Shown piece by piece: positions 14,616 to 25,741 of a stretch of 64,000 bases of DNA; positions within the stretch are counted from its first letter, which is position 1, and the number at the start of each line of letters is the position of its first letter. The notes under the pieces were generated by a model. It saw only the letters and a list, made by a program, of their open reading frames with translations, was not told the DNA's origin and searched no databases. Both the position numbers and the translations under genes were made by a program. The stretch comes from an uncultured Candidatus Saccharibacteria bacterium (lineage in GTDB: Bacteria; Patescibacteriota; Minisyncoccia; Phycocordibacterales; JAKAEA01), in assembly GCA_964577595.1 (NCBI GenBank), contig CAZNZK010000001.1:66271-130270 (forward strand), written 5' to 3'.

Positions 14616-14936
14616 CTCCCCCGGGAGGATTCGAACCTCCGACCAATCGCTTACACGAGTCCTTCTATTACTAAAAGGGGTGGACTATATCATTTCCATG
14701 AACCGTGAGGTTTTTAGGAATGAGGCGCTTCCGCAAGAATCTTAAAAAATTCTTGAGTACTCCCGCAAGGGGATAGTCTCTACACCTTCAATGACTTTCG
14801 TCAAAGCTTGGCTCGGTATTGCCCACACGATCGTTTATCTTGGGGGGTTCACCGAATTCACCTCATTTTCAACCACTATTTTCAAAGTGGTGCTGCCTTG
14901 AGACAGGCGACTGCTCTACCGCTGAGCTACAGGGGA
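14616..14936 (-). tRNA. tRNA-Asn(GUU) interrupted in the anticodon loop by a 249-nt group I intron (exons 14903..14936 and 14616..14653)
   Basis: Minus-strand 5' exon TCCCCTG-TA-GCTCAGCGGTAGAGC-A-GTCGC-CTGT. 3' exon TAA-GCGAT-TGGTC-GGAGGTTCGAATCCTCC-CGGGGGA-G. Acceptor pairs with one G.U. Joined loop is CUGUUAA. U1-A72 and G73 as in bacterial tRNA-Asn. CCA not encoded. Confidence 0.7.
14654..14902 (-). other. group I self-splicing intron (subgroup IC3-like) within tRNA-Asn
   Basis: 5' exon ends in U, which pairs as U.G in P1 (exon CUGU / internal guide GCAG near the intron 5' end). Intron ends in G. Conserved core elements present: CCGAGCCAAGC, GAAGGTGTAGAGACTA (P7 5' strand) and GATATAGTCC (P7 3' strand / P9.0). 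Confidence 0.65.
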
Positions 14937-17002: not shown

Positions 17003-18925
17003 TTAGAGCAGGCTTTCCGGGTCAATATTAACGCTGAGCGTTGGCGGCAGGGCGGCCAACTCGGCGTGCAGCTTGCCGCCGGGCCAGGTGCCGCGGGGCA
17101 GGGCCAGTAATAAGTGCATGCGGAATTTGCCGCGGGCGAATTCTACAAAAGCCGGGAACATGATTGGTTTGTAATTCTGGAGGTGGCGGGCCAGAGCGAA
17201 CATTTCTTTTTCCACTTCGGCGCGGTCGCCCTCGGCGGTGATTTTGATGAGGGTGGTGCTCGGCGGGTAGCCCAGACGTTCGCGCTCGGCAAGTTCGTCG
17301 CGGTGGAAGTCGGCGGCGTTACCACTCTGGGCGGCCTTGAATGCCGGCTGAGCGCCGGAACGGCTCTGAATCAAAAATTGTTTTTGGGCGAGTGAGCGCA
17401 AGCGCAAAAGCAGATTGGTGACTTCTTCACCGATGCGGAAATCGGGGATTGAGAAAAGGGCATCGGCACTGGCTACGGCCACGTTTTCCACGGGCTTATC
17501 TAAATAGGCAACGGCCAGTTCGGTGCCCAGCAATACCGAGCCGGGCGAATTATAAAAGTGCTCTACCCGTTCGCGGGCTTCGCGTCGGTTAGCGATAGAG
17601 TCGCTATCAAGCTGAAAAACGTTCAGGTCGGGAAAAAGGCCGGTCAAGGCTTCGGCCACGAGGGTGATGCCAATGCCAAGCGTGGTGAGGTTCCAGGAAT
17701 CACAAATGCTACAGCGCTCGGCGGCACTACGCCGTTCCCCACAGCGATGACACAGAAAAAATTGCTCGGCTTCGTCGCCACCGCCGCTGCGGTGTAAAAC
17801 GATAGGCGCGCGACAGCGTGAACAAAGCACGGTGGCGCCGCAGTCGCCGCACACCGTGGTGGGCGCTAAGCCGCGCCGAGCGCAAAAAAGAAAGAGGCGC
17901 TCATTGTGTTCGCGGTTTTCGCGCACTAACGTTTCCAGCTCGTCACTAATGATGCGGAATTCCGGCCGGTCCAATATTTTATACTTTTTCATGTCTACCA
18001 GGCGGGCGGCGGCACTGGAAAGTAGGCGGAACTTCAAGGGCACCAGCTCATGAGCTTCGTCGCGGTTGACCCGGTCTAGGGTTTCGGCGCGCAGGAGGAT
18101 GTCGCCGAGCACTAGGCGAATGCCGAGTTGTTTAGCCAGTATCTCGGCGGCGCGGCGGATATCTACGAACGGTCGAGCTTGCTGTTTGTAGCCCGTGGCC
18201 GCTTCACGCTCCACAATAATAGTGCCGAGGTCGGCCCGGGGCAGGCACAAAAAAGCGCCGGTAGCGATGATGAGTAGGGGATGCGGCTCGCCGACGGCGC
18301 GGTTCCACACTTCGGCGAGCTGTTTTTTTGTCATCGCGGCATTGGCCACGAGCGTGTTATTTTCAATGCCTTTAGAGAGTGTCTCAAAAGCACGAATACC
18401 ATCCTGAATAGTTGGCAGAACCACAAACACCGAACGCTTCCGGGCGAATTCTTCGCGAATAATACTCTTATAATGAGCGAAGCGGTCGCTGTCGTCGGCT
18501 TGGAGGACGAGGGGCGGCAAGGGTAAGTCGGCTATTTTTTTCACCACCATGCTCGCGGGTTCCTTCAGGGTGGCAGCCTGCTCCAGGATTTTTGCCGGCA
18601 CTAAAGCCGCCACTACATTGCCCGTAGTGCCGACAAAATAGTGCGCCAACTCGGCGCACGTTTGCATGAAAGGATTCAGAAATAGTTGCCCTCCGGCCTT
18701 CTCGCCAATCTTACTGGTTCCGACACTGCGTAAAGCAAAAGCAGCTGTTTTTACTTCGCTTTTAATATTGGCCGCCAGCACACTCTCCAGCACAATAGCC
18801 GCTATCAGCCGCTTGCGTAGGGGCACTTTAATGACCGTGCCTGGCGGGAGCAGGGCGGCGCTAAAATAAGTGAGGGTTTCCGCTTGGAGACCGCGGCGAA
18901 TGGGGATGACGCGGACGATGAACAT
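17003..18925 (-). CDS. priA: primosomal protein N' (PriA)-like, with degenerate Walker A/B motifs
   Basis: Cys-rich zinc region CGDCGATVLCSRCRAPIVLH...CHRCGERRSAAERCSICDS. Helicase-domain colinearity with PriA (VFVVLPTIQDGIR ... PLLIIATGAF ... TGYKQQ). Expected GxGKT is ADDSDRFAHYK and DEEH is EREA. Confidence 0.6.
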   Translation of the reverse strand: MFIVRVIPIRRGLQAETLTYFSAALLPPGTVIKVPLRKRLIAAIVLESVLAANIKSEVKTAAFALRSVGTSKIGEKAGGQLFLNPFMQTCAELAHYFVGTTGNVVAALVPAKILEQAATLKEPASMVVKKIADLPLPPLVLQADDSDRFAHYKSIIREEFARKRSVFVVLPTIQDGIRAFETLSKGIENNTLVANAAMTKKQLAEVWNRAVGEPHPLLIIATGAFLCLPRADLGTIIVEREAATGYKQQARPFVDIRRAAEILAKQLGIRLVLGDILLRAETLDRVNRDEAHELVPLKFRLLSSAAARLVDMKKYKILDRPEFRIISDELETLVRENREHNERLFLFCARRGLAPTTVCGDCGATVLCSRCRAPIVLHRSGGGDEAEQFFLCHRCGERRSAAERCSICDSWNLTTLGIGITLVAEALTGLFPDLNVFQLDSDSIANRREARERVEHFYNSPGSVLLGTELAVAYLDKPVENVAVASADALFSIPDFRIGEEVTNLLLRLRSLAQKQFLIQSRSGAQPAFKAAQSGNAADFHRDELAERERLGYPPSTTLIKITAEGDRAEVEKEMFALARHLQNYKPIMFPAFVEFARGKFRMHLLLALPRGTWPGGKLHAELAALPPTLSVNIDPESLL

Positions 18926-19109
18926 GGCTTAAATATAGGGGTCAGGGCCTAGTTTTGCAAACCAAACAAAAACTCCGCCGGAAGTATTAAAACTGTGGCG
19001 GAGCTTTGCTTAGCCTTGCGGGGATAACCACCCACTAACCATTGACACGTAGAAGTATAGCAGATTCTCTTTTACAGGCAACTATACGAAATAAAAAGTA
19101 TATTGCCTA

Positions 19110-19178
19110 AATTTTCTTGTAGGGGCGGCGGGAGTTGCACCCGCACGGCTAACGTGTCAATGGTTAGTTGAGACTCTC
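19110..19178 (-). ncRNA. tRNA-like structured RNA, family copy A (acceptor AGGGGCG/CGCCCCT, mini D hairpin, 9-nt loop CAUUGACAC, T-arm GCGGG-UGCAACU-CCCGC)
   Basis: 69-nt cloverleaf-like fold on minus strand. Near-identical to 52761..52831 with compensatory stem changes. Preceded by a conserved promoter-like motif and a leader hairpin. A hairpin plus U-tract terminator lies ~150 nt downstream at ~18957..18995. Confidence 0.45.
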
Positions 19179-19330: not shown

Positions 19331-20869
19331 TTAAAAATCGCGAAGGATGGAGATTTTGGCGCCGAGGGAATTGAGGCGAGCAACAATGTCTTCATAACCG
19401 CGGTTGATGGAATAGATATTACGCAAAACGGAAGTGCCACTGGCCGCGAGCATACCTATTAATAGAATGGCAGCGGGGCGCAAGGCGGGCGGACAAATTA
19501 CTTCCGCGGCCTTCAATGGGGTGATGCCGGTAACATACAAACGGTGCGGATCAACCAAAACGGCTTCAGCGCCGAGCTTTTCAATGTCTTTAGTGTAGAT
19601 AGCCCGCTTTTCATAGGGCCAGTCGTGAATGAGGGTGGTGCCTTTGGCTTGGGTGGCAATGATCGCGAAAAAAGGCAAGTTGTCCATATTTAAGCCGGGG
19701 TAGGGGCGGCATTCAATTTTTTCTTCTAAGGCGGTGAGGCGTGAAGGCAGGGTTTTTAAATCAACGAGTGCCGTGCGTTCGTTGTGCGCGATGTAGCGTT
19801 TCAGGATTTTATAACGGAAGCCCATTTTTTCCAGTTTCAAAAGTTCCAGTTCTAAAAATTCAATTGGCACGCGGCGCAAGGTGATGCTTGAGCGGGTTAC
19901 CACGGCGGCAGTTAAAAAGAACATAGCATCAATAGGGTCTTCAGCTAAGCGGTAGGTTACGGGTGCGTCTATTTTTGTCACGCCGTGCACAACGAGCGTA
20001 GTGGTGCCGATGCCGTCAATTTTCACACCGCATTTTTCCAAAAAGAAACACACTTCCTGCACCATATAATTGGCGGAAGCGTATTTTATGACCGTACGGC
20101 CAGGAATGAGGGCGGCGGCCATAATAGCACTCTCGCTGGCAGTGTCGCTGGATTCATAAAGAATGATTTCTGCTGGCTTAAGCTTGGCGGCCTGAACCTC
20201 GTAGTATTTCTCCTTCGTGGTGATGTTGACGCCAAGTTTTTCCAAAGCATAAAGATGTGGCTTCACGGTGCGTGAACCAAGCCGGCAACCGCCGGGCTGA
20301 GGCAGGCGAAACTTCGGCAGGGCGTGCAAGAGGGGGGCAATAAGCATGACAATGCTTCGGGTTTTTTCCGCCGATTCAGCATTCAGATTCTTCAGATCAA
20401 ATTTTTCCGGTGGTTTAATTTCCAAATCGTTCCCGCTGGCACCTGTCCATTTCACCCCGACGCCGATGGATTGAAAAACTTCAATCATGCGGTTCACTTC
20501 CTCAATTTTCGGCACGCTCTGCAAAACGGTTTTGTTGCGATTTAAAAGAGCGGCGCAGAGCAAACCCATGGCGCCGTTTTTACTCGTTTTAATGGTGATA
20601 TCTCCGGAAAGCGGGCGACCGCCTTCAATCCGAAAATTCAAGGCACCTTTGGAAAGCTGGAGGATGTCGCGGTCCAAGGCGCCACTTAATTTGGCCAGCA
20701 TTTCCGTGGACAAGTTTTGCTCTCCGCGCTCAATGCGAGCAATGGCGCTCTGGCTGGTTTCTAGGCGAAGGGCCAATTCGTCTTGCGTTAAGCCACGGGC
20801 TTGGCGCAAGCGGCTGATAAAGGTGCCTATATCGCTCAAGTGCTTGGCTGTTCGTGGGGCGGCTGGCAT
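19331..20869 (-). CDS. murA: UDP-N-acetylglucosamine 1-carboxyvinyltransferase (MurA) with N-terminal XRE-type HTH domain fusion
   Basis: MurA/EPSP-synthase fold throughout (FRIEGGRPLSGDITIKTSKNGAMGLLCAALL; active-site region QPGGCRLGSRTVKPH). First ~65 aa ISRLRQARGLTQDELALRLETSQSAIARIERGEQNLSTEMLAKLSGAL form a Cro/C1-type HTH. Start inferred at MPAAPRT; the upstream part of the 672-aa track ORF reads through an AT-rich promoter. Confidence 0.65.
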   Translation of the reverse strand: MPAAPRTAKHLSDIGTFISRLRQARGLTQDELALRLETSQSAIARIERGEQNLSTEMLAKLSGALDRDILQLSKGALNFRIEGGRPLSGDITIKTSKNGAMGLLCAALLNRNKTVLQSVPKIEEVNRMIEVFQSIGVGVKWTGASGNDLEIKPPEKFDLKNLNAESAEKTRSIVMLIAPLLHALPKFRLPQPGGCRLGSRTVKPHLYALEKLGVNITTKEKYYEVQAAKLKPAEIILYESSDTASESAIMAAALIPGRTVIKYASANYMVQEVCFFLEKCGVKIDGIGTTTLVVHGVTKIDAPVTYRLAEDPIDAMFFLTAAVVTRSSITLRRVPIEFLELELLKLEKMGFRYKILKRYIAHNERTALVDLKTLPSRLTALEEKIECRPYPGLNMDNLPFFAIIATQAKGTTLIHDWPYEKRAIYTKDIEKLGAEAVLVDPHRLYVTGITPLKAAEVICPPALRPAAILLIGMLAASGTSVLRNIYSINRGYEDIVARLNSLGAKISILRDF

Positions 20870-20996
20870 ATTAAAATAATATATCACATATGGTATATAT
20901 TTAAAAATTGAAAAATGGTGATAACTTTTGTAGGCTTGCGATATTTCTGCAAGGTGATAGCGTAGTGGTTGGATACTTTGTTTTTGGAGGTGCCCT

Positions 20997-21275
20997 ATGG
21001 CTAAAGTACCAACGTCCGATGAGGTTTTTGCGGGTGTAGAGGAAGTTCTCCGTGACACCTTTGTCGCTCCCGGCGCGATCATTAACCGTGATACGCTCCT
21101 CAAGGAAGATCTTAAGGCTGATTCGCTTGATAGCGCGGAGGTCGTCCTCAGCCTGGAGGAGAAGTTCGGGATTGAAATTCCCGACTCTGCGCTGGAGCCG
21201 GTTCCGACAACGGTTGGCGATCTCTGTGCTGTGGTTATGCGTCTCGTCCAGGCCCGGGAGCCAAGCGTTTCGTAA
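20997..21275 (+). CDS. acpP: acyl carrier protein
   Basis: Phosphopantetheine attachment motif LKADSLDSAEVVLSLEEKFGIEIPD. GGAGGTG RBS upstream. Confidence 0.7.
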   Translation: MAKVPTSDEVFAGVEEVLRDTFVAPGAIINRDTLLKEDLKADSLDSAEVVLSLEEKFGIEIPDSALEPVPTTVGDLCAVVMRLVQAREPSVS

Positions 21276-21375: not shown

Positions 21376-21747
21376 TTGACCCCGTGTCCTTTTCATGGAG
21401 GTTGTGACATGGTAGAAATACTAAAAGCGGGGGAACGAACCGTGCTGTCAGATAAACAGCTAACAGACATTATCGTCAGTGTTGTGACGGGTATTTCCGG
21501 TAACCCAGATATTTCTACAACACCCCAGTCACAAATTCTGGATCTGCCTATGTTCCATTGCGCGCCGTTCTGGTTTAAGTCGGGAGATGCGTTGACTCTC
21601 AATTCTGAACTGGCCGAATCTTTTGGCATTCCGGAACTCACGGTAGAGGAGCTTGATGAAGTGGCGAAGGTGTTTGGTCCGCAATTGACCATTCGCAAAA
21701 TCCGCGACATCGCTCTGGCTCATATGGGTGCGTTCGGAAAATATTAA
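21376..21747 (+). CDS. hypothetical protein
   Basis: 123-aa ORF (possible start at MVEILKAG) directly upstream of mreB. Confidence 0.3.
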   Translation: MTPCPFHGGCDMVEILKAGERTVLSDKQLTDIIVSVVTGISGNPDISTTPQSQILDLPMFHCAPFWFKSGDALTLNSELAESFGIPELTVEELDEVAKVFGPQLTIRKIRDIALAHMGAFGKY

Positions 21748-21879
21748 GAATCAATTAATGCAGGCACGAGCCGGCTTCTTCTCACGGAGAGCCGGCTTTT
21801 TTCTGCATATCTTTTTTGGGAAATTTTTATTTTATTTCATTTGTAAAATCTTCAAAAATCACGTAGTATGCCTATATAT

Positions 21880-22893
21880 ATGGCATTTTTCTCCAAAAAA
21901 CTCGGCATTGATTTGGGCACTACTAATACGCTCGTTTTCGTGCCAGGGCGGGGGATTGTGCTCAATGAGCCTTCGGTAGTGGCTGTTTCGGAGCAGGACA
22001 ATGTTATTTTAGCGGTGGGGGCCGAGGCTAAAGCGATGATAGGCCGCACGCCCGACAACGTCATTGCCTACCGGCCCATGAAAGATGGCGTTATTGCCGA
22101 TTACCGTGTCACCGAAGCCATGCTCCGTTATTTTATTAGTAAGGCTCTTGGTCGCTGGAGTTTTTTTCGGCCTGACGTGCTTGTTTCTGTGCCAGCCGGC
22201 GTTACTTCCACTGAGCGTCGCGCGGTGGTAGAGGCGGCGGTGAAAGCTGGCGCTAAAAACGCCTACGTGGTTAAAGAGCCTATCCTTGCCGCTATTGGCG
22301 CGGGTATTCCTATTCAGGAGGCAATGGGCAGAATGATTTGCGACATTGGTGGTGGCACCACCGACGTGGCGGTGATTTCCCTTGGTGGCATCGTGGCGTG
22401 CACTTCCGTGAAGGTGGCCGGCAACAAAATTGACGCCGCTATCATTGATTATTTGAAGAAAAATTTTAACCTAGGGCTGGGCGATAAAACTGCCGAAGAC
22501 GTCAAAATTAAAATCGGTTCAGCTATTCCCATTGAGGATGAATTGACCATGACGGTTAAGGGTCGCGATTTTGTTACTGGCTTGCCGCGCTCGGTGGAGC
22601 TGAAAACCAATGAAATCGTCAAGGCTATCGGCAAGGAACTCACCGAAATGATCGGCGCCATTAAAACCGTTTTGCAGGAAACACCCCCTGAGCTCGCCAG
22701 CGATATTATTGATAACGGCATCATTATGACCGGCGGTTCTTCGCAATTGCGCAATTTGCCCGAGCTGGTTTTTCGGCGCACCGGCGTTAAGGCCGTTTTG
22801 GCCGACGAAGCCCTTTATTGCGTGGCTAAAGGCACTGGTTTAGCTTTGGAACATTTGGATGTTTATAAGAAGAGCATTATCGCCAAGCGATAA
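21880..22893 (+). CDS. mreB: rod shape-determining protein MreB (copy 1)
   Basis: MAFFSKKLGIDLGTTNTLVFVPGRGIVLNEPSVVAV...; actin-fold phosphate-1/2 and adenosine motifs (DIGGGTTDVAVISLGG, GIIMTGGSSQLRNL). Confidence 0.8.
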   Translation: MAFFSKKLGIDLGTTNTLVFVPGRGIVLNEPSVVAVSEQDNVILAVGAEAKAMIGRTPDNVIAYRPMKDGVIADYRVTEAMLRYFISKALGRWSFFRPDVLVSVPAGVTSTERRAVVEAAVKAGAKNAYVVKEPILAAIGAGIPIQEAMGRMICDIGGGTTDVAVISLGGIVACTSVKVAGNKIDAAIIDYLKKNFNLGLGDKTAEDVKIKIGSAIPIEDELTMTVKGRDFVTGLPRSVELKTNEIVKAIGKELTEMIGAIKTVLQETPPELASDIIDNGIIMTGGSSQLRNLPELVFRRTGVKAVLADEALYCVAKGTGLALEHLDVYKKSIIAKR

Positions 22894-23038: not shown

Positions 23039-23746
23039 GTGCCGTACTATATCAGTATGGTAGGCCAGTCTCAAAAAAAACTTGAAACTCTTTTTTCTAC
23101 CGACCAGCTACATCATGCCTATTTATTAGAAGGGGAGGCGGTAAGTATTGTACCGGAATTACGGCGCTTACTTGAAAAAGAGCTCGGTATTGTCGCCACG
23201 GGCAATCCCGATTTTCGCCATATCAAAACAGAGTCGCTGACGGTGGACGATGCTCGTCAGCTACGCGAAGCCCAGCAAGTTAGGACATTTTCCGGCGGCA
23301 AAAAAATCTTCATCCTTGAAGTGTCTACAATCACCAACGAAGCTCAAAATGCTTTACTGAAAATCCTGGAAGAGCCGACTACGGGCACTCACTTTTTTCT
23401 TACTATGCCGAGTCGCTGGTTATTATTACCAGCGGTGCGTTCGCGCTTACAAATTATCAGTATGGTGCCACCAGGTCAGAAATCGGGGTCAGGCACCGCT
23501 TTGGCCTTTATGAAAGCAGCGCCCGCCGAGCGCCTTGCCCTTCTCGTGCCGATTCTGGAAGAAAAAGATAAAGCAGCCGCGCTGGTTCTTGTTGACGACC
23601 TTGTCGCTTATACGCGCGAGCGCGGCGGATCGCAGAAACACGTTGTGCTTAAAGAACTACTCCATGTTCGTCAGTATGTAAACGACCGCTCCGCTTCGCT
23701 TAAGCTTCTGTTGGAGCATGTTGCGCTCACGTTGCCCTCGCTATAA
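23039..23746 (+). CDS. holB: DNA polymerase III delta' subunit-like protein
   Basis: HAYLLEG, QNALLKILEEP and RSRLQ motifs of clamp-loader delta'. No Walker A. Confidence 0.55.
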   Translation: MPYYISMVGQSQKKLETLFSTDQLHHAYLLEGEAVSIVPELRRLLEKELGIVATGNPDFRHIKTESLTVDDARQLREAQQVRTFSGGKKIFILEVSTITNEAQNALLKILEEPTTGTHFFLTMPSRWLLLPAVRSRLQIISMVPPGQKSGSGTALAFMKAAPAERLALLVPILEEKDKAAALVLVDDLVAYTRERGGSQKHVVLKELLHVRQYVNDRSASLKLLLEHVALTLPSL

Positions 23747-23770
23747 AATATCTGCTATACTTGTCTCTAT

Positions 23771-24331: not shown

Positions 24332-25741
24332 ATGACCGAAAAATCTCCAGAAATTCCAGCAGAGCCAACGCCTGAGACTGCTCCGGCCCAAAAACCGTCA
24401 AAAATTTCAGCATCCCAATTTAATCAGAGTGATATCGGTCTACTTACAAGTATGATTGGCGACCCCGAACAAAGAAGGCGAAACAAGGATCAGTTGACAC
24501 GGGTCGCAGAAAACGCAAGGAAAAATACTCAAGAGCAAGAACGGGCACAGTTGCAGCGGGTACGCGACGATCTTACGGAAAAGTCAGTATCGTTCCCAAC
24601 GCACAAGTTGGAGCAAGCGGTTCCAGAAACTGCTCCACAGAAAAGCGGTTGGGTTGTGAATTTTTTGCGCAGATTTTCCCGGACCGCTCAGCGAAATCCG
24701 CCGGAAATAAAACCACAAGAAATAAAAAAACCACAAGAAATAAAAATTGAAGAGAAGCCGGCACGGTTTACTGAAACAGTGGTGCCTCCGCCAGAGAAAA
24801 AAGTTGTTGCGCCTGGGCCTGAATATATCGCTGGCGCACCATTTAAAGTCACCAAAGAAGTAGTGCCTAGTGTGCCGCAGAAGGCTGGGTATACAACAGG
24901 ATCACCGTTTCTTGTCACGCACGAGGAGCCGGAGAAGTCGCCACAAACGGTGAATATTGAGGGCGTTGCCAAGGATTGGCTTATAAAAGAGAAACCGTCA
25001 CAACGAAAATCGACTGCGGAATATGCTACCAAAGCTCCTTTTTCTGTTACTCAAAGAGCTCCGGAAAATCCGCCGGTATTTGTTAAGGGAAAGGAGAACG
25101 TTACGGTGAGTGCGCCTGCGCCAAAAACCATTCCCGCTGAGCCGGTTGCGCCTGAAAAGAAAGGGTTTTTTGCACGTCTCTTTGGTCGGCGCTCTGAAAA
25201 AAAAGAGGAAGCCGTCATTCCAACACCACACAATCCACGCGCTCTCAAGGCACTTGAGGCCATAAAGACGACTCAAGAGGAAACAAGAAAAACCCATTTG
25301 TTAAAAATAACAAACGAGCAATTGAATACCTATTTCGGTGCTAATCAAAAGAAAACGGGCGATCCCGCCTTTTCTGGTTCAGAACAGCTTGCTGCAGCTA
25401 CTGGCGCGGCGAATCTACTCAAAAGATTAAAAGATCTCAACCCCTCGTCAAAAGATATCCCTGCTTTTGAAGCAAAACTTAATCGCGATACTGAAGGTGC
25501 TGCCACGCAGGCCGCGATGGATATTTTTACGCCGATGAAAAATTTCAATCAATACCCGAAAGGGCTACGTCAGACCCAGTTAGAAACTCTACTCTCGCGG
25601 CCGGAAGTGAGTCCGTATAAGGAGAGGATTCAGGCTGTATTACGAGAAATTCTTGAAAATCGCCAGAAGTCCCCGAAGCCCGAAGAGAAAGAAAGTACTC
25701 AATTTTTGAGTGACGTGCTTGCCGGGCAGGGTCGTCGTTAG
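24332..25741 (+). CDS. hypothetical Pro/Glu/Lys-rich protein with internal APF-x-VT repeats
   Basis: Low-complexity N-terminal half with repeated GAPFKVTKE / GSPFLVTHE / KAPFSVTQR motifs. More ordered C-terminal region. Confidence 0.4.
   Translation: MTEKSPEIPAEPTPETAPAQKPSKISASQFNQSDIGLLTSMIGDPEQRRRNKDQLTRVAENARKNTQEQERAQLQRVRDDLTEKSVSFPTHKLEQAVPETAPQKSGWVVNFLRRFSRTAQRNPPEIKPQEIKKPQEIKIEEKPARFTETVVPPPEKKVVAPGPEYIAGAPFKVTKEVVPSVPQKAGYTTGSPFLVTHEEPEKSPQTVNIEGVAKDWLIKEKPSQRKSTAEYATKAPFSVTQRAPENPPVFVKGKENVTVSAPAPKTIPAEPVAPEKKGFFARLFGRRSEKKEEAVIPTPHNPRALKALEAIKTTQEETRKTHLLKITNEQLNTYFGANQKKTGDPAFSGSEQLAAATGAANLLKRLKDLNPSSKDIPAFEAKLNRDTEGAATQAAMDIFTPMKNFNQYPKGLRQTQLETLLSRPEVSPYKERIQAVLREILENRQKSPKPEEKESTQFLSDVLAGQGRR

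Follow-up and report, generated by a model that had tools for sequence, protein, structure and literature searches.

We analysed a window of 64,000 nucleotides (nt) of DNA from an uncultured Candidatus Saccharibacteria bacterium (assembly GCA_964577595.1, contig CAZNZK010000001.1, positions 66,271 to 130,270 of the forward strand), in which the gene for MurA, the UDP-N-acetylglucosamine (UDP-GlcNAc) enolpyruvyl transferase, encodes an additional N-terminal DNA-binding domain and is preceded by a palindrome that this domain may well recognize. MurA catalyses the committed step of peptidoglycan synthesis and is the target of fosfomycin, and how its level is set is an active question. The fused gene, referred to here as HTH-murA, is a stop-free open reading frame (ORF) at window positions 19331-20869 on the minus strand (stop codon at 19331-19333), whose translation of 512 amino acids (aa) begins with MPAAPRT and comprises, from N to C terminus, an XRE/Cro-C1 helix-turn-helix (HTH) domain, a linker of about 12 aa and a full MurA. 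The predicted operator, an 18-bp palindrome (TATATCACATATGGTATA on the plus strand), lies upstream at 20880-20897, and farther upstream stands the conserved divergent neighbour mreB (21868-22893, plus strand; MreB_Mbl, 442.6 bits).

An in-frame fusion of a Cro/C1-type HTH to MurA had been proposed from the letters of the window, in what we call the sequence-only reading, and profile searches bear it out: Pfam HTH_3 (50.9 bits) and EPSP_synthase (158.6 bits) both match significantly within the one ORF, and the peptides quoted in that reading are found in the translation as written. Extended mechanically, the ORF reaches upstream to 21349 and comprises 672 aa. A public gene call (P0001, JGI source) is 100% identical to the window protein and 6 residues longer, and its length of 518 aa would fit an in-frame GTG start at 20887. 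The ATG at 20869 is nevertheless the better start, because the homologues, at 501-525 aa, agree with it in length, a promoter sits 8 nt 5' of it, and the GTG falls inside that promoter. The earlier placement of the start at MPAAPRT, behind an AT-rich promoter, is likewise upheld by the extended -10 and -35 elements found 8 nt upstream of the ATG. That a frameshift or misassembly joined a small regulator gene to murA has a negligible probability: the identical in-frame junction recurs in hundreds of independent assemblies of differing sources, the closest homologues share the two-domain layout in alignments that span 98-100% of the length at 66-83% identity, the linker is conserved in an alignment of 54 homologous sequences (the basis of all residue conservation given here), and the AlphaFold2 model of the protein is continuous, with a mean predicted local distance difference test (pLDDT) score of 87.8. 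The survey of orthologues described below led us to reject two genes parted by a frameshift, since the same junction is present in orthologues and the HTH is not a separate gene in loci with an unfused murA; nothing was found in favour of such a split.

The HTH domain (residues 19-69; 20663-20815, minus strand) scores well above the HTH_3 cut-off of 23 bits and also matches Pfam HTH_31 (39.6 bits; cut-off 27). In the AlphaFold2 model it is built of helices at residues 6-24, 29-35, 40-47 and 55-64 (pLDDT 82-88); no fifth helix is predicted in that model. Its nearest solved relatives by PDB sequence matching are the dimeric restriction-modification controller proteins (C-proteins) C.AhdI, C.Esp1396I and C.BclI, and all of the 60 best PDB matches are DNA-binding XRE proteins or MBF1. 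C-proteins of restriction-modification systems are self-regulating dimers. More generally, XRE regulators typically act as dimers that control their own genes, binding palindromes in the DNA upstream (PMC12565409). The predicted recognition helix, QSAIARIE (residues 40-47; 20729-20752, minus strand), follows directly on T38-S39 and is assigned from its invariant residues (Q40, S41, A44, R45 and E47) and from the covariation described below. By analogy with the 434 repressor, residues Q29, Q40, S41, R45 and N52, all invariant, would contact DNA. The linker (residues 65-77; 20639-20677, minus strand) is a coil in the model, with a pLDDT of about 70, and its region is conserved, G75 and N78 being nearly invariant; a short conserved linker of this kind is compatible with a coupling of enzyme state to DNA binding, and does not show it.

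The MurA body (residues 78-512; 19334-20638, minus strand) aligns end to end with residues 4-414 of E. coli MurA (1uae). The EPSP_synthase match (PF00275) covers residues 82-498 and profile positions 2-416 of 417, and the solved structure 5ujs is matched at 2e-56. The NCBIfam MurA subfamily model PRK09369 scores above its cut-off over residues 78-508 (336.1 bits versus 297) and the equivalog TIGR01072 below it (326.6 versus 392.7), so that, judged by these profiles, the window protein belongs to a divergent MurA lineage. Eight residues, K97, N98, C195, R200, D396, R422, R464 and R490, are invariant and correspond in that order to the catalytic or substrate-binding residues K22, N23, C115, R120, D305, R331, R371 and R397 of the E. 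coli enzyme; R464 is the equivalent of R371 in the alignment to 5ujs and is one residue off in that to 1uae. The codon of the active-site C195, counterpart of the fosfomycin target C115, lies at 20285-20287 on the minus strand. The AlphaFold2 model (predicted template modelling score 0.80) consists of four helices within residues 6-64, the coil linker and then the MurA fold; among the PDB matches we found no solved structure spanning both domains. From its profiles and conserved residues, the polypeptide is predicted to unite a catalytically competent enzyme with a DNA-binding domain. HTH-murA encodes the one MurA of the 64-kb window, and because fused and unfused versions occupy the same mreB / murA / priA-pdf-fmt locus, the comparison suggests that it is the housekeeping murA and not a murA-derived sensor.

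In a scan of relatives that used one genome per GTDB species, at least 548 loci with relatives were found, the best 80 of which were taken as related loci. In this survey of orthologues, of the kind suggested in the sequence-only reading, the fused HTH-MurA is present in 72 of the 80 species. The HTH plus EPSP_synthase architecture was also shared by 120 of 120 homologues of the window protein among the matches listed (66-100% identity, 97-100% coverage, 501-557 aa), and a search started from a distant member (L079) returned the same architecture in 120 of 120 among its matches listed. The related loci are placed in Parcubacteria/Paceibacteria lineages, namely Taylor-, Nomura-, Kaiser- and Zambryskibacteria, and also in Uhrbacteria and Kerfeldbacteria. 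A representative library searched with the N-terminal 141 aa yielded gene fragments for the most part, together with fused members down to about 40% identity. Judged from these genomes, murA commonly takes the fused form in a large part of the Patescibacteria. One locus (L062, DATGWK010000003.1), labelled 'Candidatus Nanoarchaeia archaeon', has the bacterial mreB-murA-priA order, and its MurA is 68% identical to that of the window; a mis-binned Patescibacteria contig is the probable explanation. Databases that name homologues of HTH-MurA use the plain name MurA. We found no paper describing the fusion or the palindrome; PMC8066302, considered as a possible prior description, concerns an ordinary Cys-to-Asp MurA. 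HTH-MurA is the first case we found of an enzyme-repressor design on MurA with a defined operator, an architecture visible in databases and unremarked there.

When the upstream DNA of the fused genes was aligned, a perfect 18-bp palindrome, TATAGCATATATGCTATA, emerged, followed by A/C-T; its right half serves the murA promoter as TG-extended -10 box (TGCTATAAT). The copy in the window has 1 mismatch to the degenerate consensus, scores 22.1 bits, begins 10 nt before the ATG and is embedded in an inverted repeat of 12+12 nt (20878-20901). The promoter scan placed the TG-extended -10 (TGATATATT; 20878-20886, minus strand; hexamer TATATT at 20878-20883) over the right half of the operator, and a -35-like hexamer, TTTAAA, at 20900-20905 (minus strand), with a 16-nt spacer between the two; 8 nt separate the end of the -10 from the ATG. 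The aligned sites upstream of the fused genes were turned into a position weight matrix, which gave 72 matches of at least 14 bits in 881,659 nt of related loci, 67 of them at most 150 nt upstream of a murA ATG and a further 3 at 177-214 nt; no site was found at other genes within 6 kb of murA. In 25 loci, the window (10 nt) among them, the operator lies 8-12 nt from the ATG, a spacing that would imply leaderless mRNA; a second cluster of distances is found at 22-33 nt.

In the 64-kb window the palindrome is the only strong match, and a second strong site is lacking. The sole other match is a weak palindrome-like site at 23742-23759 (plus strand; TATAAAATATCTGCTATA; 13.1 bits, 3 mismatches), 11 nt before the start of frr, the gene for ribosome recycling factor, which is probably a mere extended -10 promoter half-site. 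A generic promoter motif was rejected as an account of the palindrome: ATGCTATAMT has no match in the window, and across the 882 kb of loci the palindrome is nearly confined to regions upstream of murA.

A more specific promoter explanation holds that the palindrome consists of overlapping back-to-back extended -10 elements serving the divergent murA and mreB. TGCTATA does occur on both of its strands, and mreB is often directly divergent. The conservation pattern speaks for a protein-binding site. Positions A2, T3 and C6 of the operator logo are 100% conserved and mirror T17, A16 and G13, and yet these left-half positions fall in the promoter spacer, where they have no promoter role. The base that completes the -10 hexamer (position 20) is T in 93% of 70 loci on the murA side, whereas the mirror position is unconserved (33% A). 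With the left half conserved and only the murA flank completing a -10, a dimeric binder is indicated and not a pair of promoters. Moreover, mreB has -35/-10 elements of its own at variable distances from the palindrome, unfused loci keep the divergent mreB without the palindrome, and the palindrome also precedes unrelated HTH genes. We therefore rejected the bidirectional element, on the flank asymmetry and on mreB's own promoters, and regard it as extremely unlikely.

The palindrome and the HTH domain travel together. A site of at least 14 bits precedes 70 of the 72 fused genes and none of the 8 unfused ones. These eight unfused orthologues keep the same synteny and fall into four separate groups in 98 of 100 bootstrap neighbour-joining trees of MurA, and no separate HTH gene was found within 6 kb of murA in any of them: HTH and operator have been lost together. 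In two of the unfused loci (L074 and L078) the -10 half, ATATGCTATACT, is kept and the left half is gone. The fused proteins also vary in concert with their sites. Where residue 39, which immediately precedes the recognition helix, is Ser, operator position 5 is T in 24 of 32 half-sites (TATATCA); where it is Thr, T is found in 10 of 110 half-sites and G dominates (TATAGCA). Ser occurs in several clades, and the association gives a Fisher p of 7e-13, a statistic that ignores shared ancestry.

As a reverse test, we scanned a metagenome collection for the exact palindrome without reference to genes, which yielded at least 120 loci (L081-L200) with at least 122 instances. Among the 122 listed matches, 76 had an HTH gene of this subfamily, recognized by a subfamily hidden Markov model, pointing away from the palindrome within 1.3 kb; 2 more were truncated cases, 28 had too little flanking sequence and 16 had none, so that 78 of the 94 assessable instances listed adjoin a homologous HTH gene. 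Three architectures recur: HTH-MurA (about 9 loci among the matches listed); proteins of 93-103 aa with a C-terminal HTH (TKQSVISRLESG), which start 1-40 nt past the palindrome; and modules in which an HTH antitoxin comes after a Gp49/RelE-type toxin (PF05973, 71.8 bits). The palindrome TATAGCATATATGCTATA is thus also promoter-proximal to toxin-antitoxin operons and to small HTH proteins, a widespread HTH-operator pair that we did not find described in the literature. Close homologues of one of the small proteins come from Daviesbacteria, Blackburnbacteria, Levybacteria and a 'Patescibacteria group' (Microgenomates lineages). The stand-alone proteins beside the identical palindrome share the recognition-helix motif T[TK]QS.I.R.E.G, and this pairing of the same helix motif with the same palindrome in unrelated gene contexts is independent evidence that an HTH of this type reads the site. 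The occurrence of the pair in other modules further suggests that murA captured a ready-made unit: promoter, operator and HTH look like a cassette that came from XRE autorepressors of toxin-antitoxin type in Patescibacteria and was joined in frame to murA. No toxin gene adjoins HTH-murA in the window, its neighbours being priA, an acyl carrier protein (ACP)-like ORF and mreB, and Gp49 toxins were found only in other palindrome-bearing loci.

The same metagenomic loci raise the question of whether the main binder of the palindrome at murA is a distinct XRE protein acting in trans, for instance of antitoxin type, with the fused HTH redundant or otherwise used. The helix motif of the stand-alone proteins that adjoin an identical palindrome, and the Patescibacteria lineages from which close homologues of these small proteins are named, lend this some substance. 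It is nonetheless unlikely: where the fused HTH has been lost, the palindrome is gone as well (0 of 8 unfused loci, in 4 independent groups), in L074 and L078 even though the -10 half stays. A stand-alone gene of this kind is also missing within 6 kb of murA in every locus, apart from a weak match in L073, and from the 64-kb window.

The position of mreB bears on a further alternative. It lies divergent to and upstream of murA in 64 of the 80 loci, and in 38 fused loci it is directly adjacent, the intergenic region of 70-329 nt holding the operator. RodZ binds MreB through an XRE-type HTH, and together with this adjacency one could suppose that the fused HTH is a RodZ-like adaptor that docks MurA onto MreB filaments without binding DNA. 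We consider this very unlikely: Pfam HTH_25 is absent from the matches down to E = 0.1, the 60 best PDB matches for the HTH include no RodZ chain, a directly divergent mreB is missing from at least 32 fused loci that have the site, and the palindrome, its co-loss with the HTH and the covariation would be left unexplained. As regards regulation, the operator lies in the shared intergenic region in most relatives, so that mreB may be co-regulated; its position is fixed relative to the murA -10 and variable relative to the mreB elements, from which murA emerges as the primary target and mreB as at most a secondary one.

Taken together, these observations make it likely that HTH-MurA is both a housekeeping UDP-GlcNAc enolpyruvyl transferase and, through its N-terminal XRE HTH, the repressor of its own gene. 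From genome comparison we infer physical binding, dimerisation, repression rather than activation, and leaderless translation. In the mechanism we propose, two HTH domains would bind the two halves of the 18-bp palindrome, which is predicted to cover about -26 to -9 of the murA promoter, taking in the spacer together with the TG motif and the -10 hexamer as far as its fourth base; with the operator in this position, the bound protein should exclude RNA polymerase. Transcription of murA would then fall as HTH-MurA rises, so that the first committed step of peptidoglycan synthesis would be under negative autoregulation. As the -10 ends 8 nt before the ATG, the murA mRNA of the window is probably leaderless. 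The sequence-only reading had called the protein an unusual regulatory fusion: the regulatory meaning appears strengthened by the palindrome on the gene's own promoter, and the rarity did not hold, the fused form being common.

Several points weigh against autorepression by HTH-MurA. Its support comes wholly from comparative genomics, and the shared ancestry of the sequences bears on the residue-39 covariation as noted. A good site is missing from two fused loci (there is none in L065, and that of L063 scores 12.8 bits), and the window operator is among the weaker copies, with 22.1 bits against 31.1 for a perfect site and the half-sites TATACCA and TATATCA. Canonical MurA is monomeric, so that a dimer would have to arise through the HTH or through cooperative binding. 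Because stand-alone proteins with the same helix exist in Patescibacteria, a trans-acting protein could also occupy the site, and the count of a single MurA covers the 64-kb window.

An extension of this autoregulation is more speculative, and we offer it tentatively. MurA undergoes an open/closed domain movement on binding of UDP-GlcNAc or phosphoenolpyruvate, and UDP-N-acetylmuramic acid (UDP-MurNAc) is the product of the pathway. Such movement, or a tight complex with UDP-MurNAc, might alter the geometry or the pairing of the two HTH domains and so make HTH-MurA a metabolite-gated switch, by which precursor status would set transcription of murA and, where it is adjacent, of the divergent mreB. 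As toxin-antitoxin-type HTH proteins in Patescibacteria use an identical operator, antitoxins and MurA could also cross-regulate, which might tie addiction or defence modules to the cell wall.

Other features of the window stand apart from this conserved unit. A divergent, stand-alone acpP had been named as the neighbour of murA, and a divergent ORF of 92 aa does exist at 20997-21275 (plus strand), with a PP-binding match of 30.9 bits and a DSL phosphopantetheine motif; it scores below every NCBIfam ACP cut-off. Together with an ORF of 123 aa without family match (21376-21747, plus strand), it forms an insertion that separates murA from mreB. The 80 related loci contain no match to either ORF (searched by tblastn for the ACP-like one), by which the ACP-like ORF is lineage-specific and outside the conserved unit, the conserved partner being mreB. 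On the other side of murA, a PriA-like helicase is encoded at 17003-18925 (minus strand); it has no Pfam match at E <= 0.001 and scores 224.2 with NCBIfam priA against a cut-off of 230.35, and we classify it by this profile as a divergent PriA. The 405-nt gap from the priA start to the murA stop contains a perfect 17-nt inverted repeat (ACTAACCATTGACACGT, 19034-19050 and 19152-19168) with 101 nt between its arms; as RNA this region folds better than 200 of 200 shuffled sequences (z = -3.4), and it has no Rfam or tRNA match. No Rfam or tRNA element was found around HTH-murA. Farther away, a group I intron (RF00028) at 14661-14912 (minus strand) matches the full-length Rfam model at 53.3 bits (gathering score 50), with no tRNA or rRNA gene called in its surroundings, and an ORF of 469 aa at 24332-25741 (plus strand), between frr and an M50/RseP-type protease, has no Pfam or NCBIfam match.

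If HTH-MurA is the repressor of its own gene, a large part of the Patescibacteria would appear to set the level of MurA by an enzyme-borne repressor acting at its own promoter, unlike the regulated proteolysis of Firmicutes. Self-limiting expression without a separate regulator would suit genomes of 0.5-1 Mb. A core housekeeping gene has apparently taken up a toxin-antitoxin-like cassette, which subsequently disappeared on at least three or four occasions. The organisms are mostly uncultured, and the protein, the 18-bp site and a predicted contact pair (residue 39 and operator position 5) are all defined. In thousands of database entries the bare name 'MurA' conceals a DNA-binding domain. Should the metabolite-gated switch prove true, the status of cell-wall precursors would directly set murA transcription.

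Among known systems, PutA of E. coli and Salmonella (proline utilisation A) represses its own gene from operators lying between that gene and the divergent putP, the same geometry as that of HTH-murA and mreB. PutA binds several operators with a ribbon-helix-helix domain and ceases to repress when it associates with the membrane in a proline-dependent manner; HTH-MurA, in contrast, has an XRE HTH, a single palindrome on the -10, and MurA as its enzyme. BirA, the biotin protein ligase and bio repressor, and NadR likewise combine an enzyme and a repressor in a single polypeptide whose HTH is N-terminal, the 'trigger enzyme' logic by which the state of an enzyme is coupled to transcription of its pathway. 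The HTH of BirA is winged, its dimerisation and DNA binding need biotinyl-AMP, and it regulates the bio operon, whereas the only conserved target predicted for HTH-MurA is its own promoter. Regulators of the BzdR type carry an XRE HTH at the N terminus of an enzyme-fold, shikimate-kinase-like domain, and the corresponding NCBIfam model (PRK08154) weakly matches the window HTH (30.4 bits). In BzdR the kinase-like domain serves as a ligand sensor and is catalytically inactive; the catalytic residues of HTH-MurA, by contrast, are all invariant and its gene stands at the housekeeping murA locus. The C-proteins and the XRE antitoxins of Gp49/HigB-type systems include the closest HTH structures, an identical palindrome as promoter-operator and a shared recognition-helix motif. 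Those proteins are small and separate and regulate their own expression within mobile or addiction modules, whereas the HTH-murA cassette is joined to a core enzyme and has no toxin neighbour. In the Firmicutes the same node, the level of MurA, is regulated, and the amount of MurA sets the flux into peptidoglycan (PMC8528326). There, control is post-translational and lies with separate proteins, ClpCP proteolysis being steered by ReoM/ReoY and PASTA kinases; the control proposed for HTH-MurA would be transcriptional and built into the enzyme. RodZ, finally, shares with HTH-MurA an XRE-type HTH genetically linked to mreB, but HTH-MurA has no HTH_25 match and no transmembrane or periplasmic part, and it comes with a cognate DNA palindrome.

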